This document shows positions 2,670 through 9,311 of a stretch of 11,067 nucleotides of DNA, in pieces; the first letter of the stretch is position 1; every line of letters begins with the position of its first letter. The translations under genes were made by a program, and so were the position numbers. Under the pieces are notes generated by a model, which was given only the letters and a program-made list of their open reading frames with translations, was not told the origin of the DNA and did not search any database. This DNA is from a virus (lineage: Duplodnaviria; Heunggongvirae; Uroviricota; Caudoviricetes), in the IMG/VR virus record IMGVR_UViG_2534681675_000020, one strand, 5' to 3'.

Positions 2670-3725
2670 TTAACCAATTTTGACGGTAACAAATTTGCGA
2701 ATATCTGCCGGAACCGGCTGCGGTGCGCTGTGCGTCTGCACGTACTCAATCGCCGGATCGCCGTCCTCAATCCAGTTTTTCGGGTAAAACATGTTTTGCG
2801 TTGCGCCCGTTCTGACCGCTTCCTGATCCATAATCGCACCATAGGCCACCAGCCCTTTATTGTTGGTGTTGCCCAGGACCAGCAAATCAGGCTCAAGGAA
2901 ATATTTTTCGGTGCCGTCGCTGTCAGTGTATTTGCCGGAATAGACGATAAGGGCAATATCGCCCAGATATCCTTTAAAGCTCACCACTTCGCCCAGGTTT
3001 TTACAGGCCAGCTCTGCGGAGGACTCTGAACCACGGGAAAGATCGTACAGTTCGCGGAATTTTTTAAAGCTGCGTAACGTTCGCCATACCTCAGCGCCCA
3101 TGATCATGACGTTGGCGGGGCAACATGCTTGATCCGCATAAAGCTCGATATCATAGATTGGATCGTGGGTTTCTTTGTCCTGCTCGGACCATTTACGGCC
3201 TTTGGCCTGCTCTATGATGTTTTTTTCCGGTATCTTCCAGTCGATTTCATAGCGTTCTATGCCTTCGCCCTCAATGATGTTTTTTCCGGTCGTTATCGCA
3301 TTCACCGCCAGCCATTCCACGCGCGCTTTAATCGCGTTTATCTGGCGGCGCATGTTGCCAGTAATCAGGCGCATACGGCGATAGGTTGGGTCATTAAGCT
3401 GTGCCGGATCTTCTCCAGCCATACGTATGATGGTTTTCGTTGGATCGATTTCGTGCTTCGGCTTCATGTATCCAGGTTTAATCGTGCTGGTTTCGTACCC
3501 TTTATCGCGCTGGACCTGACTACCCACCATAGGCGAACAAAACGCCGACATCGTAACCTCTTCAATGTCCAGGGTGTCCAGCATGATGTTTTGGGTGTTG
3601 AATGTCGCCACGTTCGGGAAAAACAGCGTGGTAAACAGCGGACTGAATTTAAATTCCGCAATATCCCCGCGATTCAGGTACATGAAAAGCTGGTTAGTGT
3701 TAAGTGCCGTTGCTTTGCCTGCCAT
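2670..3725 (-). CDS. major capsid protein, lambda gpE-like
   Basis: 351 aa (lambda gpE is 341 aa). Motifs FKFSPLFTTLFF, GYMKPKHEIDP, DPAQLNDPTYRRMR, YPKNWIEDGDPA and the C-terminus ADIRKFVTVKIG are collinear with remembered gpE. The start overlaps the upstream stop (TAATG). Confidence 0.85.
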   Translation of the reverse strand: MAGKATALNTNQLFMYLNRGDIAEFKFSPLFTTLFFPNVATFNTQNIMLDTLDIEEVTMSAFCSPMVGSQVQRDKGYETSTIKPGYMKPKHEIDPTKTIIRMAGEDPAQLNDPTYRRMRLITGNMRRQINAIKARVEWLAVNAITTGKNIIEGEGIERYEIDWKIPEKNIIEQAKGRKWSEQDKETHDPIYDIELYADQACCPANVMIMGAEVWRTLRSFKKFRELYDLSRGSESSAELACKNLGEVVSFKGYLGDIALIVYSGKYTDSDGTEKYFLEPDLLVLGNTNNKGLVAYGAIMDQEAVRTGATQNMFYPKNWIEDGDPAIEYVQTHSAPQPVPADIRKFVTVKIG

Positions 3726-4346: not shown

Positions 4347-4769
4347 TTAAAACGGTATGTTATCCCCGTACGGATCATCATTCCCCGCCTGTTGTTTTGC
4401 CCTGTTCAGCGCGTCAGTAGCCTGGCCCTGTTGACCTTTTTTGCCGCCCAGTCGCGCCGTTCGCGCACTGATTACACTGTCTGCGATAACCTGCCAGCCC
4501 TGCCGCGTTTCTCCGTTCTGCCCAGTCCACTGGCTGATCTGCATGTTACCCGCCACGCTCAGGAGTTCACCCTTGCGGTGCCTTTCCAGTGCTTCGGCCT
4601 GTCTGCCAAATGCCAGGACGGATAACCACATCGTCGCCGTTCCGTCATCTGCCTGGCTGCACGGAAGGGGGACCGCCATACGCGCCAGCGTCATCGGTGT
4701 GCCCTTGCTGGTCTGTTTTACCTGCGGGTCGTCCACCAGCCGCCCGTAAGCGGCTATCTGTGCTGTCAT
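4347..4769 (-). CDS. ssb: single-stranded DNA-binding protein (SSB family)
   Basis: 140 aa. OB-fold region WLSVLAFGRQAEALERHRKGELLSVAGNMQISQWTGQNGETRQGWQVIA parallels E. coli SSB ([50 protein letters not shown]); Gly/Gln-rich linker and C-terminal acidic tip ...DDPYGDNIPF (SSB ends DDDIPF). GGAGAGG RBS. Confidence 0.8.
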   Translation of the reverse strand: MTAQIAAYGRLVDDPQVKQTSKGTPMTLARMAVPLPCSQADDGTATMWLSVLAFGRQAEALERHRKGELLSVAGNMQISQWTGQNGETRQGWQVIADSVISARTARLGGKKGQQGQATDALNRAKQQAGNDDPYGDNIPF

Positions 4770-5332: not shown

Positions 5333-7087
5333 TTATAAAAACGCGTCGCACTCGTCTGTTGTTATTGCGTTAGTCTGCGTTACTCCCTTAACTTTCCGCG
5401 TAATATATTCATGTCCGTAAACTTTCGCGGCTGGCTTCATAGCCTTGCCAAAGTCATTTACGTTTAGCGGTTTGCTCCTGCCTGCGTACGCCATAAACGC
5501 CAGATAGACGCGATAAAGGCTGTTCCTGGTCGTGTACTTCACTGAATCACCACCGCCACCCATCATCAGGCCGCGCGCTTCCTCCAGAAAATTCAGGAAC
5601 TGGCAAAACTCAATAACCGGATCCGTCTGTTGCTTTATTGCCAGTGCTTCATCACCGTCACGCTGTTCCAGTAGTAAAGCCCGTGCCTTCTCAGGGTCGG
5701 TAAAGTTCGCCAGCAATCGGCGGATAATGACAGGGATTTCAGCCGCAATCTTTTCCGGTAGCTCCCTGTCTTTTTCGGCCTCACTGACGATATTGTCGAA
5801 ACGGAAAATTACGCGACGACGTGACACACCTCCGGCCCGTTCGGTGAATATCATCGGGTTATTGTTGGTAGCCAGCACCACCGCCCTGATTACCGCCGTA
5901 AAACGCTTTTCATATTTCGGGTTAATTTCCACGGGGTCGCCGCCCGTGATTTTCTTGATGCCCGTTCCTTCGCCTGTATATTTCGGCTGGTCAGCCAGGA
6001 CGATAAGACGACTCCCGACAACCTGCGCACGTCCACCAGCATCATCAAGCGATGTCATCTCCGCGCTCACCGTGTTCTGTTTCCCTGCCAGAAGGCTGGC
6101 TATGTGCGTGAATGTACTTTTACCGCTCCCGCCGTCTCCGGTGGCCTCAATAAACATCTGCCAGTCGTACCGGTTCGCCATAATCATGTACAGCGCGGCA
6201 CATATACGCATCATCTTGCGCGGGTCTTTTCCGGCTACGTGCTCAAGCCATTTATGAAAGTTTGGCGCGTTGTCGCGGATATTCTCCCCTGGTGCTGGTG
6301 GCGTGTACTCAATACCGTTGTGCGTGGTGATCCAGTTCTCCGGCGTGTGCGGGGAAAATTCCCCCGTTTTCAGGTCAAGCGCACCATTGGCGAACGGCAG
6401 CAAATCGCCGGACGGCTCGCCCATTGGTTCGGCAATAACTTTTAACGCTTCCACGGCGTTATTGATTACGCGCTTGCTGAAAGTGGCCCTGTGCTCTGAA
6501 TAGATCGCCACCATTTCGCGGCTAAGTTCCATTGTGCTGACCGGACACCATACCCCGCCGCGCCATACGTAAACGATTTCACTTTCAGGATGTACGCAAA
6601 CGCCATCAAAGCGATCGGCAAGCAGCTGCGCGCGCTCACTGTCCGCCATCTGCGAAAGTTGCGCCTTTTGCTTTACCGGAAGCTCAATGACCAGACCATC
6701 AGAAAGATTCTGTCGCTCACGGGCCAGATATTCGCGCCAGTTCTGCACCTCTTGGCCGTGCATACCCTCAGGATAAAAATTTGCATCCTGTACGCCTGCC
6801 GCCGCCAGCTTCTGGCCAATCGCCTTTATCATTACTGGCGCAAGATATCCGGCCCTGAATATGCGCACGGATTTTCTGCCTTCCGGCACAATTTGCAGCT
6901 TATCCAGTTCTGATAACTGCTGCTCCCCAAGCCACACAGGAGGCTCATTATCTCCGGCCAGACGCGCGTCATGTTCCTGCCATTGTTTTGCGTGTGACCA
7001 GGCATCACTACCCGCAAAAATAATGACTTCTGTTTCTTTGTGTTTTATGCCGCGTGACTGCTGTTTTACGTTCGGTGCCAGTTTCAT
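5333..7087 (-). CDS. P4-family DNA primase/helicase (replication initiator)
   Basis: 584 aa with Walker A GDGGSGKST, a downstream Walker B-like LIVLAD and a primase-like N-terminal half; architecture typical of phage/plasmid P4-alpha-type primases. Start overlaps the upstream stop (ATGA). Confidence 0.85.
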   Translation of the reverse strand: MKLAPNVKQQSRGIKHKETEVIIFAGSDAWSHAKQWQEHDARLAGDNEPPVWLGEQQLSELDKLQIVPEGRKSVRIFRAGYLAPVMIKAIGQKLAAAGVQDANFYPEGMHGQEVQNWREYLARERQNLSDGLVIELPVKQKAQLSQMADSERAQLLADRFDGVCVHPESEIVYVWRGGVWCPVSTMELSREMVAIYSEHRATFSKRVINNAVEALKVIAEPMGEPSGDLLPFANGALDLKTGEFSPHTPENWITTHNGIEYTPPAPGENIRDNAPNFHKWLEHVAGKDPRKMMRICAALYMIMANRYDWQMFIEATGDGGSGKSTFTHIASLLAGKQNTVSAEMTSLDDAGGRAQVVGSRLIVLADQPKYTGEGTGIKKITGGDPVEINPKYEKRFTAVIRAVVLATNNNPMIFTERAGGVSRRRVIFRFDNIVSEAEKDRELPEKIAAEIPVIIRRLLANFTDPEKARALLLEQRDGDEALAIKQQTDPVIEFCQFLNFLEEARGLMMGGGGDSVKYTTRNSLYRVYLAFMAYAGRSKPLNVNDFGKAMKPAAKVYGHEYITRKVKGVTQTNAITTDECDAFL

Positions 7088-7388: not shown

Positions 7389-7616
7389 TTATTCTCCGGT
7401 GTGATGCGCTTTATTATTCTCGTGAATTGCCATCACTGTATTTAATTCGTTAATTACTGGCGTTAATAATGTGTGCACGGCAGAAAACATCATGGGATAT
7501 GATTCATCGCCATTTTCCGGCACTTCCATTAACTTAAGTAATAATGCCTCCATTTCCTTTGCGCGGATTAATGCATTCTCAGAATGAATAAGAACATTAA
7601 AGGGTATTTTATGCAT
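7389..7616 (-). CDS. hypothetical protein, 75 aa (AT-rich gene)
   Basis: Preferred start ATG at 7614-7616 (MHKIPF...) with GGGAGA about 9 nt upstream; this start overlaps the stop of the upstream gene by 8 nt (ATGCATAA). The track start at 7652 lies inside the upstream gene. Locally AT-rich by eye. Confidence 0.45.
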   Translation of the reverse strand: MHKIPFNVLIHSENALIRAKEMEALLLKLMEVPENGDESYPMMFSAVHTLLTPVINELNTVMAIHENNKAHHTGE

Positions 7617-7839
7617 CACACAGTTTCTCCCTGATTCTTTTAGTGTCCTCATTGAGGATGTCTGTAGCTTTTGTCAGTGAGTTTTTGATAATTATTTTTA
7701 TTGTTTTAAATTTTCTTTTGTCGTACTCCGACTGTGATTTCCTCTCCATGATCTCTACCATGCAATTTATATCCACAAGCGCATGTATCAGTACTTTCAA
7801 TGCTTCGCCTGCTGCGTCCGGCGTGTTTTTATTGCACAT
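7609..7839 (-). CDS. hypothetical protein, 76 aa (AT-rich gene)
   Basis: ATG at 7837-7839 (MCNKNTPDAAGE...) preceded by AGGAGG with 5-nt spacing. The track ORF extends to 7881, but that upstream start has no RBS. Confidence 0.5.
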   Translation of the reverse strand: MCNKNTPDAAGEALKVLIHALVDINCMVEIMERKSQSEYDKRKFKTIKIIIKNSLTKATDILNEDTKRIREKLCDA

Positions 7840-8443
7840 GGCGCACCTCCTGACGAATACGGGCGGCGAATACAGCAACACAACCGGACGGGCAACGACT
7901 ACGCGCTTCGCGTTCCGTCCAGGCGGTTACGTGGATGATTTGGGATTCTGACGCGCCAAAGATGATAAAGCGCCAGATAAAGGCAGTTTGAGAATGTACG
8001 AGGGCAGGGATAGTAGCCATGTTGGCAGCCTCTTCGTTAGGTTTAATAAACCCACCGCAGGAAACGCCAATTTCGCTGGCGGTGGACTGTACAGGGTTGG
8101 CGTAACCGGTTAACGAAGAACCCGGCGCGGATTGCTCCGCCCCCATACAGCCCACCATTGATAAGGTGTGACTATCCGGCACAAAAAAACACGCAGGGCG
8201 CGTGTTGTGCGCTTCGTTAAATACCAGGACGCCAATCCCGGCACCAGATTTTGCTGGTGCGGATAAATCATAGCCCTGGCTGGCAATGGCGATCAACTGG
8301 TTTTTCTGGCGTGCTTCCTGTTCGCTGGTGGCCTCAATGGTAATCACGCGCGGTTGTGCTGTGCTCAGGGCGATAAAACGCCAGATATATTTATTCAGGT
8401 TGTGCGAGTCCCGCCCTTGCGGGTGTATGGTATGATTTAACAT
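7829..8443 (-). CDS. hypothetical protein, 204 aa, with a diverged internal repeat; first gene of the leftward early operon
   Basis: ATG at 8441-8443 with GAGG 5 nt upstream; C-terminus overlaps the next gene by 11 nt. N- and C-terminal segments repeat: IWRFIALSTAQPRVITIEATSEQEAR versus IWRFIIFGASESQIIHVTAWTEREAR. It is the C-terminal part of a 423-codon open frame whose upstream part is judged non-coding. Confidence 0.4.
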   Translation of the reverse strand: MLNHTIHPQGRDSHNLNKYIWRFIALSTAQPRVITIEATSEQEARQKNQLIAIASQGYDLSAPAKSGAGIGVLVFNEAHNTRPACFFVPDSHTLSMVGCMGAEQSAPGSSLTGYANPVQSTASEIGVSCGGFIKPNEEAANMATIPALVHSQTAFIWRFIIFGASESQIIHVTAWTEREARSRCPSGCVAVFAARIRQEVRHVQ

Positions 8444-8525
8444 AGCTACCTCGATACTCTCGTTATCGTTGGTGGTTAGAAGCCCGGTTAGTGTTAGCGC
8501 ACTGCCGGGTTTCGTCGTTTCTGCA

Positions 8526-8622
8526 CCTTGTATCAACAAGGTGTAAGACACAATGTAAAATAATAGTGTCTTACACGTCAACCCTTCAAAATAATTTTTT
8601 TTCGTGTATATTGTCTTACACC
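8526..8622. promoter_or_regulatory. divergent control region: three copies of operator motif GTGTAAGACAC plus a sigma70-like promoter for the + strand gene
   Basis: GTGTAAGACAC at 8541-8551, inverted GTGTCTTACAC at 8566-8576, third copy TGTCTTACAC at 8612-8621; small palindrome CCTTG-TATCAA-CAAGG at 8526-8541. -35 TTCAAA (8585-8590), 16-nt spacer, -10 TATATT (8607-8612). Confidence 0.45.
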
Positions 8623-8642
8623 AAAAACATAAGGAGTTAGAC

Positions 8643-8822
8643 ATGGCAACAGGTCCAAAGAATGCAAAATCACAATCTGTAACTGCACGTATTGCCCATG
8701 AAATTATTGAAGGCATGGAAAACGTGAAAGAAGAAGGCGAAAGTACAGGGCAGTTTATAAGTGCAGCCATGCGCGGCGAGATCAAACGCCGCCAGCGCCG
8801 CAAGGCCAAAGAGCAGGAGTAG
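8643..8822 (+). CDS. small DNA-binding-like protein (possible ribbon-helix-helix fold), 59 aa; candidate island regulator
   Basis: ATG at 8643 with AGGAG 6 nt upstream. A short beta-like segment SVTARIAHEII is followed by two predicted helices and a basic tail KRRQRRKAKEQE. It is the only convincing + strand gene in the window. The fold is inferred, not searched. Confidence 0.5.
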   Translation: MATGPKNAKSQSVTARIAHEIIEGMENVKEEGESTGQFISAAMRGEIKRRQRRKAKEQE

Positions 8823-8925
8823 CTCCACCGGAATTTTTTTCCGGTTACGCTTTGCCCACCAGCCGCAAATGTGGCATTGTTGGCTATGCTCATGCGTTGG
8901 GGATAACGTGTAGCTTGTGTCGAGG

Positions 8926-8953
8926 GGCCACCGTAGCGGGTGGCCTTTGTTTT
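8926..8953 (+). terminator. rho-independent terminator
   Basis: Stem GGCCACC (8926-8932) / GGTGGCC (8939-8945), loop GTAGCG, followed by TTTGTTTT. Confidence 0.45.
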
Positions 8954-9049
8954 GCCTGTTATCCGGCAATTGTGGCGCTTCGTCACACGGTTGATATAAT
9001 TCCACTGCACTGATCCATTTTTTTCGCAGCAGGTTAATTGTTCGCAAGG

Positions 9050-9077
9050 GCGCTCCGGCAACGGGGCGCTTTTTGTT
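9050..9077 (+). terminator. rho-independent terminator with GNRA loop
   Basis: 8-bp stem GCGCTCCG / CGGGGCGC with one G-U pair, loop GCAA, followed by TTTTTGTT. Confidence 0.45.
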
Positions 9078-9104
9078 ATGTTCATCGCGTTACGCCTCAC
9101 ACCA

Positions 9105-9311
9105 TTACGCAGCCGTTCCGCGCGCTTCTTCCTCGCGCTCTTTCAGCCAGGCCAGCACTTCATCTTCATACCAGCCAACACGGCGCAGACCGATTTTGAA
9201 GCCTTTCGGGAATTTTCCGGCGTTGATCATGTCCTGTAGCGAACTGTCTGCCTTGATGCGCAGAATATTTTTTACTTCCTGACGGGTAAGAATTTTTCTG
9301 ATTGTTTCCAC
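9105..9311 (-). CDS. alpA: AlpA-family phage transcriptional regulator/excisionase-like protein
   Basis: 68 aa with GTG start at 9309-9311 and GAGG RBS. Motif ...LRIKADSSLQDMINAGKFPKGFKIGLRRVGWYEDEVLAWLKER is typical of the AlpA/Phage_AlpA family (HTH followed by a conserved W). Confidence 0.75.
   Translation of the reverse strand: METIRKILTRQEVKNILRIKADSSLQDMINAGKFPKGFKIGLRRVGWYEDEVLAWLKEREEEARGTAA

Follow-up and report, generated by a model that had tools for sequence, protein, structure and literature searches.

The 11,067-nt stretch of viral DNA analyzed here (the window; IMG/VR record IMGVR_UViG_2534681675_000020) carries on its minus strand an open reading frame (ORF) of 204 codons at 7829-8443, starting at ATG 8443 with the Shine–Dalgarno (SD) sequence GAGG 6 nt upstream and ending with the stop codon TAA at 7829-7831. 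The ORF exists as described in an earlier note on this DNA, which could not place the protein in any family and expected a helper-sensing or derepression function. It is very probably the satellite counterpart of the nested eta/kil gene pair of P4, built around an antisense-RNA immunity cassette of the P1/P4 type which controls the replication operon. No evidence for a helper-sensing or derepression protein was found; the data point instead to an RNA immunity and anti-termination switch together with a small division inhibitor of the Kil/Icd type. The parts of the arrangement are the following.

7829-8443, minus strand: eta-like ORF of 204 codons, composed of a truncated icd-like 5′ part, a read-through of the RNA cassette and a nested kil-like 3′ part
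8303-8404, minus strand: N-terminal repeat copy (aa 14-47), a truncated Icd-like domain
8267-8296, minus strand: internal sigma-70 promoter-like site from a consensus scan (-35 TTGATC, 18-nt spacer, -10 TATGAT)
8184-8260, minus strand: IsrK-like or P4 seqA-like leader RNA (Rfam RF01394, 80 bits, gathering threshold 50)
8229-8235 and 8211-8220, minus strand: target sites b1 and a1 within isrK, complementary to the C4 loops
8075-8162, minus strand: gene of a C4 or P4-CI-type antisense RNA, upstream of the primase (Rfam RF01695, 75.3 bits, gathering threshold 45)
8110-8119, minus strand: C4 loop a′, UCUUCGUUAA
8097-8103, minus strand: C4 loop b′, ACGCCAA
8031-8070, minus strand: second target set, with b2 (UUGGCGU) at 8064-8070 and a2 (CUAACGAAGA) at 8031-8040
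7829-8020, minus strand: nested kil/icd-like gene of 63 aa, starting at ATG 8020, beginning with MATIPALVHSQTAFIWRF and holding the C-terminal repeat copy
7609-7839, minus strand: next operon gene, 76 aa (ATG 7839, SD GGAGG; phrog_5146)

An Rfam scan of the window placed two RNA families on the ORF's own strand within its middle third, isrK and the C4 antisense RNA. What had been noted as a Gly/Ser-rich middle of the protein is the translation of these two RNA genes. A match to c4-a1b1 (RF03163) at 8221-8273 has 42.9 bits (E = 3e-8), stays below the gathering threshold of 46.7 and overlaps the stronger isrK match; P4 scores similarly with this model (44.1 bits). The other Rfam matches below threshold, to symR (33 bits, gathering threshold 61) and to two miRNA families, were dismissed. 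The -10 element of the internal promoter-like site ends 7 nt ahead of the first position of the isrK model, with a predicted transcription start at about 8260, and we propose from the sequence that this site is the analogue of P4 PLE and of Salmonella PisrK. Among the satellite leaders whose extract reaches the site, GCTATGATT is conserved in all but one. The 3′ end of isrK is an intrinsic terminator with a stem at 8188-8206 followed by a U7 run.

The C4 RNA has a minimum free energy of -45 kcal/mol, and its two loops can each pair with two sites in the transcript. Loop sequence CUUCGUUAA (8118-8110) has its complement at 8220-8212 within isrK, and that of UCUUCGUUA (8119-8111), which overlaps it, is at 8039-8031; ACGCCAA (8103-8097) is complementary to both 8235-8229 and 8070-8064. 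Site a2 overlaps the SD (GAGG, 8030-8033) of the nested kil-like gene. In the fold of the leader the isrK sites pair in cis with the C4 loops (z = -4.3).

For the comparative analysis loci were seeded on the 63-aa Kil part alone, to avoid selecting for a long ORF. The Kil-seeded loci comprised 37 from IMG/VR, obtained by a scan with a small alignment, and three from species genomes, obtained by a scan with the 63-aa Kil. Five E. coli RefSeq loci found by DNA similarity to the window and P4, taken by accession, were included, and the set gave 25 distinct leaders of 260 nt. In the C4 helices 15 of the 27 predicted pairs show compensatory double changes across 13 homologues including P4 CI and the C4 RNA of phage D6. 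The leaders contain nine a′ loops and five b′ loops in 11 combinations (specificity types), and every one of them comes with corresponding a1/a2 and b1/b2 sites of its own. The cognate partners reach 8.5/10 for a′-a1, 9.4/10 for a′-a2 and 7/7 for both b′-b1 and b′-b2, as compared to 5.7, 6.3, 5.1 and 5.1, respectively, for the noncognate combinations. Such switches of specificity are seen also as co-varying peptide blocks in database proteins, where FNEA goes along with PNEEA and MSKA with LSKEA.

At the level of codons the two parts of the ORF behave differently. In kil the variable sites are distributed 11/9/27 over the three codon positions, with 2842 synonymous and 2104 nonsynonymous codon differences, whereas in the RNA middle the distributions are 17/14/26 and 39/33/37, with synonymous/nonsynonymous differences of 229/713 and 109/661. 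An AlphaFold2 model based on an alignment of 22 sequences has a predicted local distance difference test (pLDDT) score of 21-25 for aa 50-152 and a mean of 37; the Kil part reaches 60-69 with a beta-beta-alpha-beta fold, and the N-terminal copy appears as a truncated beta-beta-alpha unit with 40-51. A search for solved structures related to the Kil part found none. The Ash middle of the ORF is without amino-acid constraint and unstructured in AlphaFold2, and only the C-terminal Kil/Icd-like domain, that is the last 63 residues, is a selected protein. The Pfam match to Phage_ASH (PF10554; aa 59-151, 4.9e-16, 59.5 bits at a cut-off of 26) coincides with the DNA of isrK and C4, and because no protein-level constraint is seen there, the Ash label stands for an RNA cassette in translation and not for a protein domain. 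The possibility raised in the earlier note, that the region encodes a structured RNA instead of a protein, is thus half borne out, as the middle encodes isrK and C4.

The reading frame is conserved in the related islands, in support of the earlier reading: in 23 of the 25 distinct leaders the kil frame has no stop codon in the 260 nt upstream, and the other two frames have 145 and 34 stops in total. Apart from deletions of a single base in the two loci with a broken frame, L029 and L006, insertions and deletions are 3 nt long; one further locus (L044) has an insertion of approximately 38-39 nt, a size which is not reliable from this alignment. D6 served as the only P1-like control. Its RNAs belong to the same families, and translation in the corresponding register gives an Ash-like sequence, which is however interrupted by two in-frame stops; possession of the RNA genes therefore does not by itself leave the frame open. 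In sum, the RNAs are functional, selection acts on Kil as a protein, and on the middle it acts solely to keep the frame open.

The start codons ATG 8020 and ATG 8443 have a common frame and a common stop. The C-terminal 63 aa match the NCBIfam family Icd-like NF033153 over the full profile (positions 1-48; 59.6 bits, cut-off 25), are 42% identical to the Icd protein of phage D6 and align with P4 Kil. By analogy with P1 Icd the domain is probably an FtsZ-directed division inhibitor; binding of P1 Icd to FtsZ has been reported, and FtsZ-mediated division inhibition is known for P1 Icd alone (PMC11897509). Downstream of the ORF follows a tightly packed minus-strand operon with the 76-aa ORF, an 87-aa ORF, a DUF4222 gene and a P4-type primase (5333-7087). 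ATG 7839 of the 76-aa ORF overlaps the kil-like stop by 11 nt (7829-7839), which suggests that translation of the downstream operon is coupled to that of kil; icd overlaps ant in the same manner in P1-like phages. In Pfam, NCBIfam and PHROG scans none of the four downstream gene products (76 aa, 87 aa, DUF4222 and primase) showed an antirepressor, Bro or Rha domain.

The ORF is by no means without relatives. Beside Phage_ASH it matches NF033153 in two stretches (2.1e-25), its layout is that of P4 eta/kil, and NCBI names the close homologues "Ash-like/host cell division inhibitor Icd-like protein"; hundreds of proteins in the databases align with 93-100% of the 204 aa. Its reading as an orphan protein is ruled out by the matches in Pfam, NCBIfam and PHROG. 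The matching PHROG families are 6196, 1743 and 6928, whose label "transcriptional repressor" probably descends from the annotation of P4 cI: the P4 record NC_001609 still lists at 8168-8584, over the CI RNA region, a protein coding sequence "cI gene product, transcriptional repressor".

P4 is the closest known system. Its eta gene is a 199-codon frame (8168-8767 in NC_001609) which overlaps the stop of orf88, a homologue of alpA/vis, and includes an isrK-like RNA (8615-8692) and the C4 or CI RNA (8420-8507) in the same order as in the window. P4 Eta ends with the 65-aa Kil MATTLTPSHPEF and has an architecture of Ash (aa 22-146) plus one Icd-like domain (aa 146-193). P4 Kil is a truncated form of Eta (PMC10111431, summarising Forti et al. 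1999), full-length Eta comes solely from a late promoter located upstream, with coupling to the alpA homologue, and translation of Eta prevents termination (PMC10111431). The module of RNA immunity and anti-termination is of a known kind, and homologues in phage-inducible chromosomal islands (PICIs) had already been flagged in 2023: CI and seqA homologues occur in PICI genes (PMC10111431). The window and P4 have in common the isrK/seqA-like leader, the C4/CI RNA, the target on the kil SD and a Kil of 63-65 aa that has its frame and its stop in common with the long ORF, with matching order and strand; they also share the position between alpA/orf88 and the primase operon and the Ash plus Icd-like architecture. 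They differ in the loop specificities and in the protein sequences (30% identity over 104 aa). Whereas eta overlaps the orf88 stop directly, the window has between alpA and ATG 8443 an open stretch of 657 nt with an antisense YlcI/YnfO gene, and its element is a capsid-encoding island of the PICI type and not a P4-type satellite with Sid, Psu and Delta.

Further parallels are found in the immI region (c4-icd-ant) of P1 and P7 and in D6, which contain the C4 RNA family together with an isrK/a1b1-like leader. In P1 and D6 the Icd family protein opens with the same MATIP...FIWRF motif as in the window (42% identity for D6), the icd SD carries the target site, and the following gene begins before icd has ended. 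Unlike in the window, however, the icd frame of D6 is closed upstream by two stops in 270 nt, so that D6 is without an eta-like ORF, and the gene downstream in P1 and D6 is an antirepressor in place of the replication operon. The isrK-orf45-anrP region of Gifsy-1 resembles the window in that the IsrK small RNA has its own promoter and terminator and is followed by an ORF with conserved nucleotides and a variable peptide, whose translation the downstream gene needs; this ORF, which overlaps a C4-like region, is translated and coupled to the downstream gene (PMC4825925). Gifsy-1 differs by the trans-activation by IsrK described for it and by the antirepressor downstream, and neither a kil/icd-like gene nor a primase operon is involved (PMC4825925). 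An isrK/C4-like cassette within long annotated ORFs is also present in lambdoid phages (SfV; Stx2 phages such as VT2-Sakai). In SfV (L049, 853-1689) the cassette lies between cro and the replication genes inside orf37, 278 aa, annotated as "transcriptional regulator".

The mechanism which we propose is transferred from P4 and P1 and receives support from the patterns of covariation and selection. In the quiescent island the internal promoter would be constitutively active, and its transcripts would mostly end early and be processed into C4 RNA. By pairing with a2/b2 (and a1/b1) C4 would block translation of kil and cause premature termination, and the replication operon would be off. The sequences of the a and b loops would set the specificity of this satellite immunity. 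Upon firing of the upstream promoters, either the alpA promoter or a divergent one upstream of 8443, ribosomes would start at ATG 8443 or at 9085/9100 and translate across the cassette; the RNA would then neither fold nor pair, Rho would be kept off and transcription would reach the primase. Since the passage of ribosomes would protect the transcript, the act of translation would matter for the middle segment and its peptide sequence would not. Most likely, then, the island silences its replication operon by a P1/P4-type RNA immunity switch, and two short loops reveal the specificity of this switch.

Several observations weigh against this interpretation. The internal and the upstream promoters are consensus matches only, and Rho-dependent termination, RNase P processing and anti-termination by translation would all be features carried over from P4 and P1. 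In BLASTP the whole ORF is only weakly similar to P4 Eta (30% over 104 aa, E = 2e-4), and P4 Eta has no N-terminal Icd-like copy and hence offers no precedent for that part. The frame is broken in two of the 25 leaders (L029 and L006) and these islands persist nonetheless. Many leaders are closely related, and the counts of open frames are not independent events. In addition, the NCBI Prokaryotic Genome Annotation Pipeline (PGAP) often annotates the "ash" part as a pseudogene.

Three other explanations have to be considered. According to one of them, which we regard as rather unlikely, the cassette acts like IsrK of Salmonella Gifsy-1: the terminated IsrK-like RNA would activate in trans and open the transcript for translation of the ORF over C4 and of the downstream gene. 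The strong isrK match with a good terminator at its end, the pairing of the isrK sites with the C4 loops in the leader fold and the documented mechanism of IsrK (PMC4825925) are in line with this explanation. The C4 loops, however, co-vary with a1/b1 and a2/b2, and the position of a2 on the kil SD is the repressive geometry of P1 and P4; moreover, kil and the primase operon follow downstream as in P4 and there is no antirepressor. The IsrK-like and the P4-like mechanism are not mutually exclusive. It is also improbable that the ORF encodes a genuine multidomain protein of 204 aa, either a two-headed FtsZ inhibitor of the Icd type or a regulator with a flexible Gly/Ser linker, with the RNA overlap being secondary. 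Such a protein would explain the good SD and ATG, the open frame in most relatives and the hundreds of near full-length database proteins; both Icd-like parts score above the NCBIfam cut-off, and the N-terminal copy has in the AlphaFold2 model a beta-beta-alpha shape like the C-terminal one. Yet its "linker" lacks amino-acid constraint (109/661 and 229/713 synonymous/nonsynonymous differences, flat across codon positions), changes in blocks which track the RNA pairing and has a pLDDT of about 22. Furthermore, the N-terminal copy stops short of the final third of the domain, near-identical islands may have it shortened or deleted (forms of 179, 186 and 204 aa), and it is missing from P4 Eta.

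The third explanation takes the long ORF as a fortuitous read-through that is never translated in one piece; function would reside in the two RNAs and the 63-aa kil-like gene alone, and the conserved RNA sequences would just happen to be stop-free in this frame. In close relatives PGAP indeed gives a separate Icd-like coding sequence of about 63 aa and treats "ash" as pseudogenised, two of the leaders are natural frameshift variants, D6 as a P1-like phage works with stops in this frame, and RNA constraint extends over much of the region. We nevertheless give little credit to this explanation, as the unconstrained spacers and all 11 loop variants are stop-free too and the insertions and deletions keep to 3 nt save in the two broken loci. 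Moreover, in 10 loci, some with dissimilar spacers, the frame is open for a further 640-1230 nt upstream, a result reached by none of the 2000 shuffles, and there are reports that translation of P4 eta is functional (PMC10111431) and that the product of Gifsy-1 orf45 has been detected (PMC4825925). A chance fusion as origin of the ORF was also considered; it is weakened by the abundant full-length homologues, by the stop and indel statistics and by the P4 precedent.

The kil frame extends beyond the 204 codons. The ORF does lie upstream of the operon which ends in the primase, and its former description as the promoter-proximal gene of that operon stands to this extent; the open frame itself, however, continues to GTG 9100 or ATG 9085. 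Two further features belong to this region.

8444-9100, minus strand: upstream continuation of the kil frame to GTG 9100 or ATG 9085 (GAGG 9 nt upstream), antisense to the YlcI/YnfO gene
8540-8622, both strands: divergent control region with three GTGTAAGACA-type sites overlapping promoter-like hexamers on both strands

The stop codon of alpA is at 9105-9107, so that GTG 9100 follows 4 nt and ATG 9085 19 nt after it; the start of the 204-aa form, ATG 8443, is 662 nt away. On its way the upstream frame crosses the YlcI/YnfO gene and its terminators in antisense direction. Ten loci with three AlpA variants are without any stop in the kil frame over the 640-1230 nt from alpA to the cassette, where each of the other frames has 9-28 stops; of 2000 shuffles none was stop-free. 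These loci, in which a long frame of 350-500 codons opens 4-19 nt past the stop of alpA and runs to kil, are the window (7829-9100, minus strand), L001, L003, L012, L013, L017, L028, L030, L036 and L046. The spacer of L013 has no detectable similarity to that of the window and contains an antisense Arc-like gene instead. In about a third of the loci the long frame is interrupted, and no protein domains were found in the long N-terminal extensions. An open frame of such length from alpA to kil is without precedent, and it would fit the idea developed for P4 that continuous translation from alpA onward protects the transcript.

A more general proposal can be made tentatively, with doubts outweighing confidence: in PICI/P4-like satellites selection may maintain a "ribosome track" of up to approximately 500 codons from the alpA stop to kil, for which translation itself, and no peptide, would be the functional product. 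The track runs antisense to the small repressor gene and its terminators and then through the divergent promoter region, the internal promoter, the two RNA genes and kil. It would constitute an anti-termination and anti-antisense switch making the helper-induced transcripts immune to the island's own C4 RNA and, with at least 9 x 5 reassorting types of a and b loops, would form part of a combinatorial RNA immunity code in most E. coli genomes, hidden under "Ash" and "Icd-like" annotations. Should the frame from alpA to kil indeed be maintained solely so that it can be translated, nature would offer here a clear case of selection acting on translatability and not on a protein. Concerning the control of this region, the GTGTAAGACA-type sites are candidate operators for a leftward promoter which would serve ATG 8443, and together with the YlcI/YnfO-family gene they form a candidate repressor–operator pair. 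The real start of the YlcI/YnfO-family gene (8643-8822, plus strand) is probably ATG 8643 with the SD AAGGAG and not the mechanically assigned GTG 8604.

The internal repeat of the 204-aa ORF had been interpreted earlier as a diverged duplication going beyond a short shared DNA motif, and this is borne out by our analysis. Residues 14-47 and 149-182 are identical at 12 of 34 positions with a BLOSUM62 local score of 73, a value reached by 0 of 2000 shuffles (22.9 +/- 4.3, maximum 51), and each copy by itself passes the NF033153 cut-off of 25: the N-terminal 50 aa give 40.4 bits and cover profile positions 1-32 of 48. The DNA motif is present as well, as GATAAAGCGCCAGATA at 7964-7979 and GATAAAACGCCAGATA at 8372-8387; these positions differ by one to three bases from those first given. 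In near-identical islands the N-terminal copy is whole, shortened or absent, resulting in forms of 204, 186 and 179 aa.

A related E. coli island (L045, strain 19SZHZ663Rt) throws light on the origin of the repeat. Its backbone is the same as in the window, with integrase, AlpA-type helix-turn-helix protein, divergent YlcI/YnfO, DUF4222 and primase; neither C4 nor isrK was found in it, and its primase operon is headed by an intact stand-alone icd-like gene of 67 aa (2438-2641). Window positions 8303-8509 are 92% identical to the first 47 codons and the upstream region of this gene, and the similarity resumes at 7837-7873. According to this comparison the window ORF consists of the 5′ two thirds of an icd-like gene, followed by a [promoter-isrK-C4-kil] cassette of about 430 nt. 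An allele matching the N-terminal icd-like copy serves elsewhere as a bona fide C-terminal Kil (P0102). Judging from L046 (E. coli A19), which contains at 1047-2319 two C4 genes (1269-1356 and 1747-1834) along with three tandem Icd-like copies, a [C4-icd] unit can apparently be duplicated; a third Icd-like copy is also found about 300 nt downstream of kil in several IMG/VR loci. The repeat most plausibly arose as a side product when cassettes recombined or were duplicated between icd-like genes. The cassette would have joined an older icd-like operon head and left a truncated icd-like fragment, which would donate SD and ATG and maintain the frame. A truncated N-terminal icd copy of this kind is without precedent.

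DNA related to the 615-nt query is present in 3340 of 5426 complete E. coli genomes, and the full three-part arrangement in only 81 of them. The exact a′ plus b′ specificity of the window was found on 10 IMG/VR contigs, nine of 10-16 kb, which is the size of satellites, and one of 28.9 kb; none of the full-size phage contigs of IMG/VR was found to carry it. The cassette as such is present in 281 GenBank phage records, almost always at 60-80% identity. We also considered an RNA cross-talk between satellite and helper, which receives no support given the confinement of the exact specificity to those 10 contigs and the low identity of the GenBank phage cassettes. The common annotations "Ash family protein", "Icd-like protein" and, in PHROG, "transcriptional repressor" are only partly right, and recent PICI papers still list Ash and Icd-like products as ordinary proteins.

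The element hosting the cassette is a PICI-type satellite which encodes its own capsid genes. Apart from the primase operon it contains integrase, AlpA, a single-stranded DNA-binding protein (SSB), a lambda E-like capsid protein, a D-like decoration protein, PerC and a truncated insertion sequence (IS), of which the following were located.

4347-4769: SSB
2670-3725: lambda E-like major capsid protein
2323-2658: D-like decoration protein
1-372: PerC-family activator

Another IMG/VR contig, 2671180296_000007, matches the island; it has a length of 11,051 bp and is 100% identical in the Kil-seeded match. The IS is an IS3-family element at 517-1592 on the minus strand, inserted between the PerC-like gene (1-372) and the head genes, which we take to resemble IS2. 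It encodes an rve transposase of 301 aa, and the ORF upstream of the transposase appears to have lost its 5′ part.

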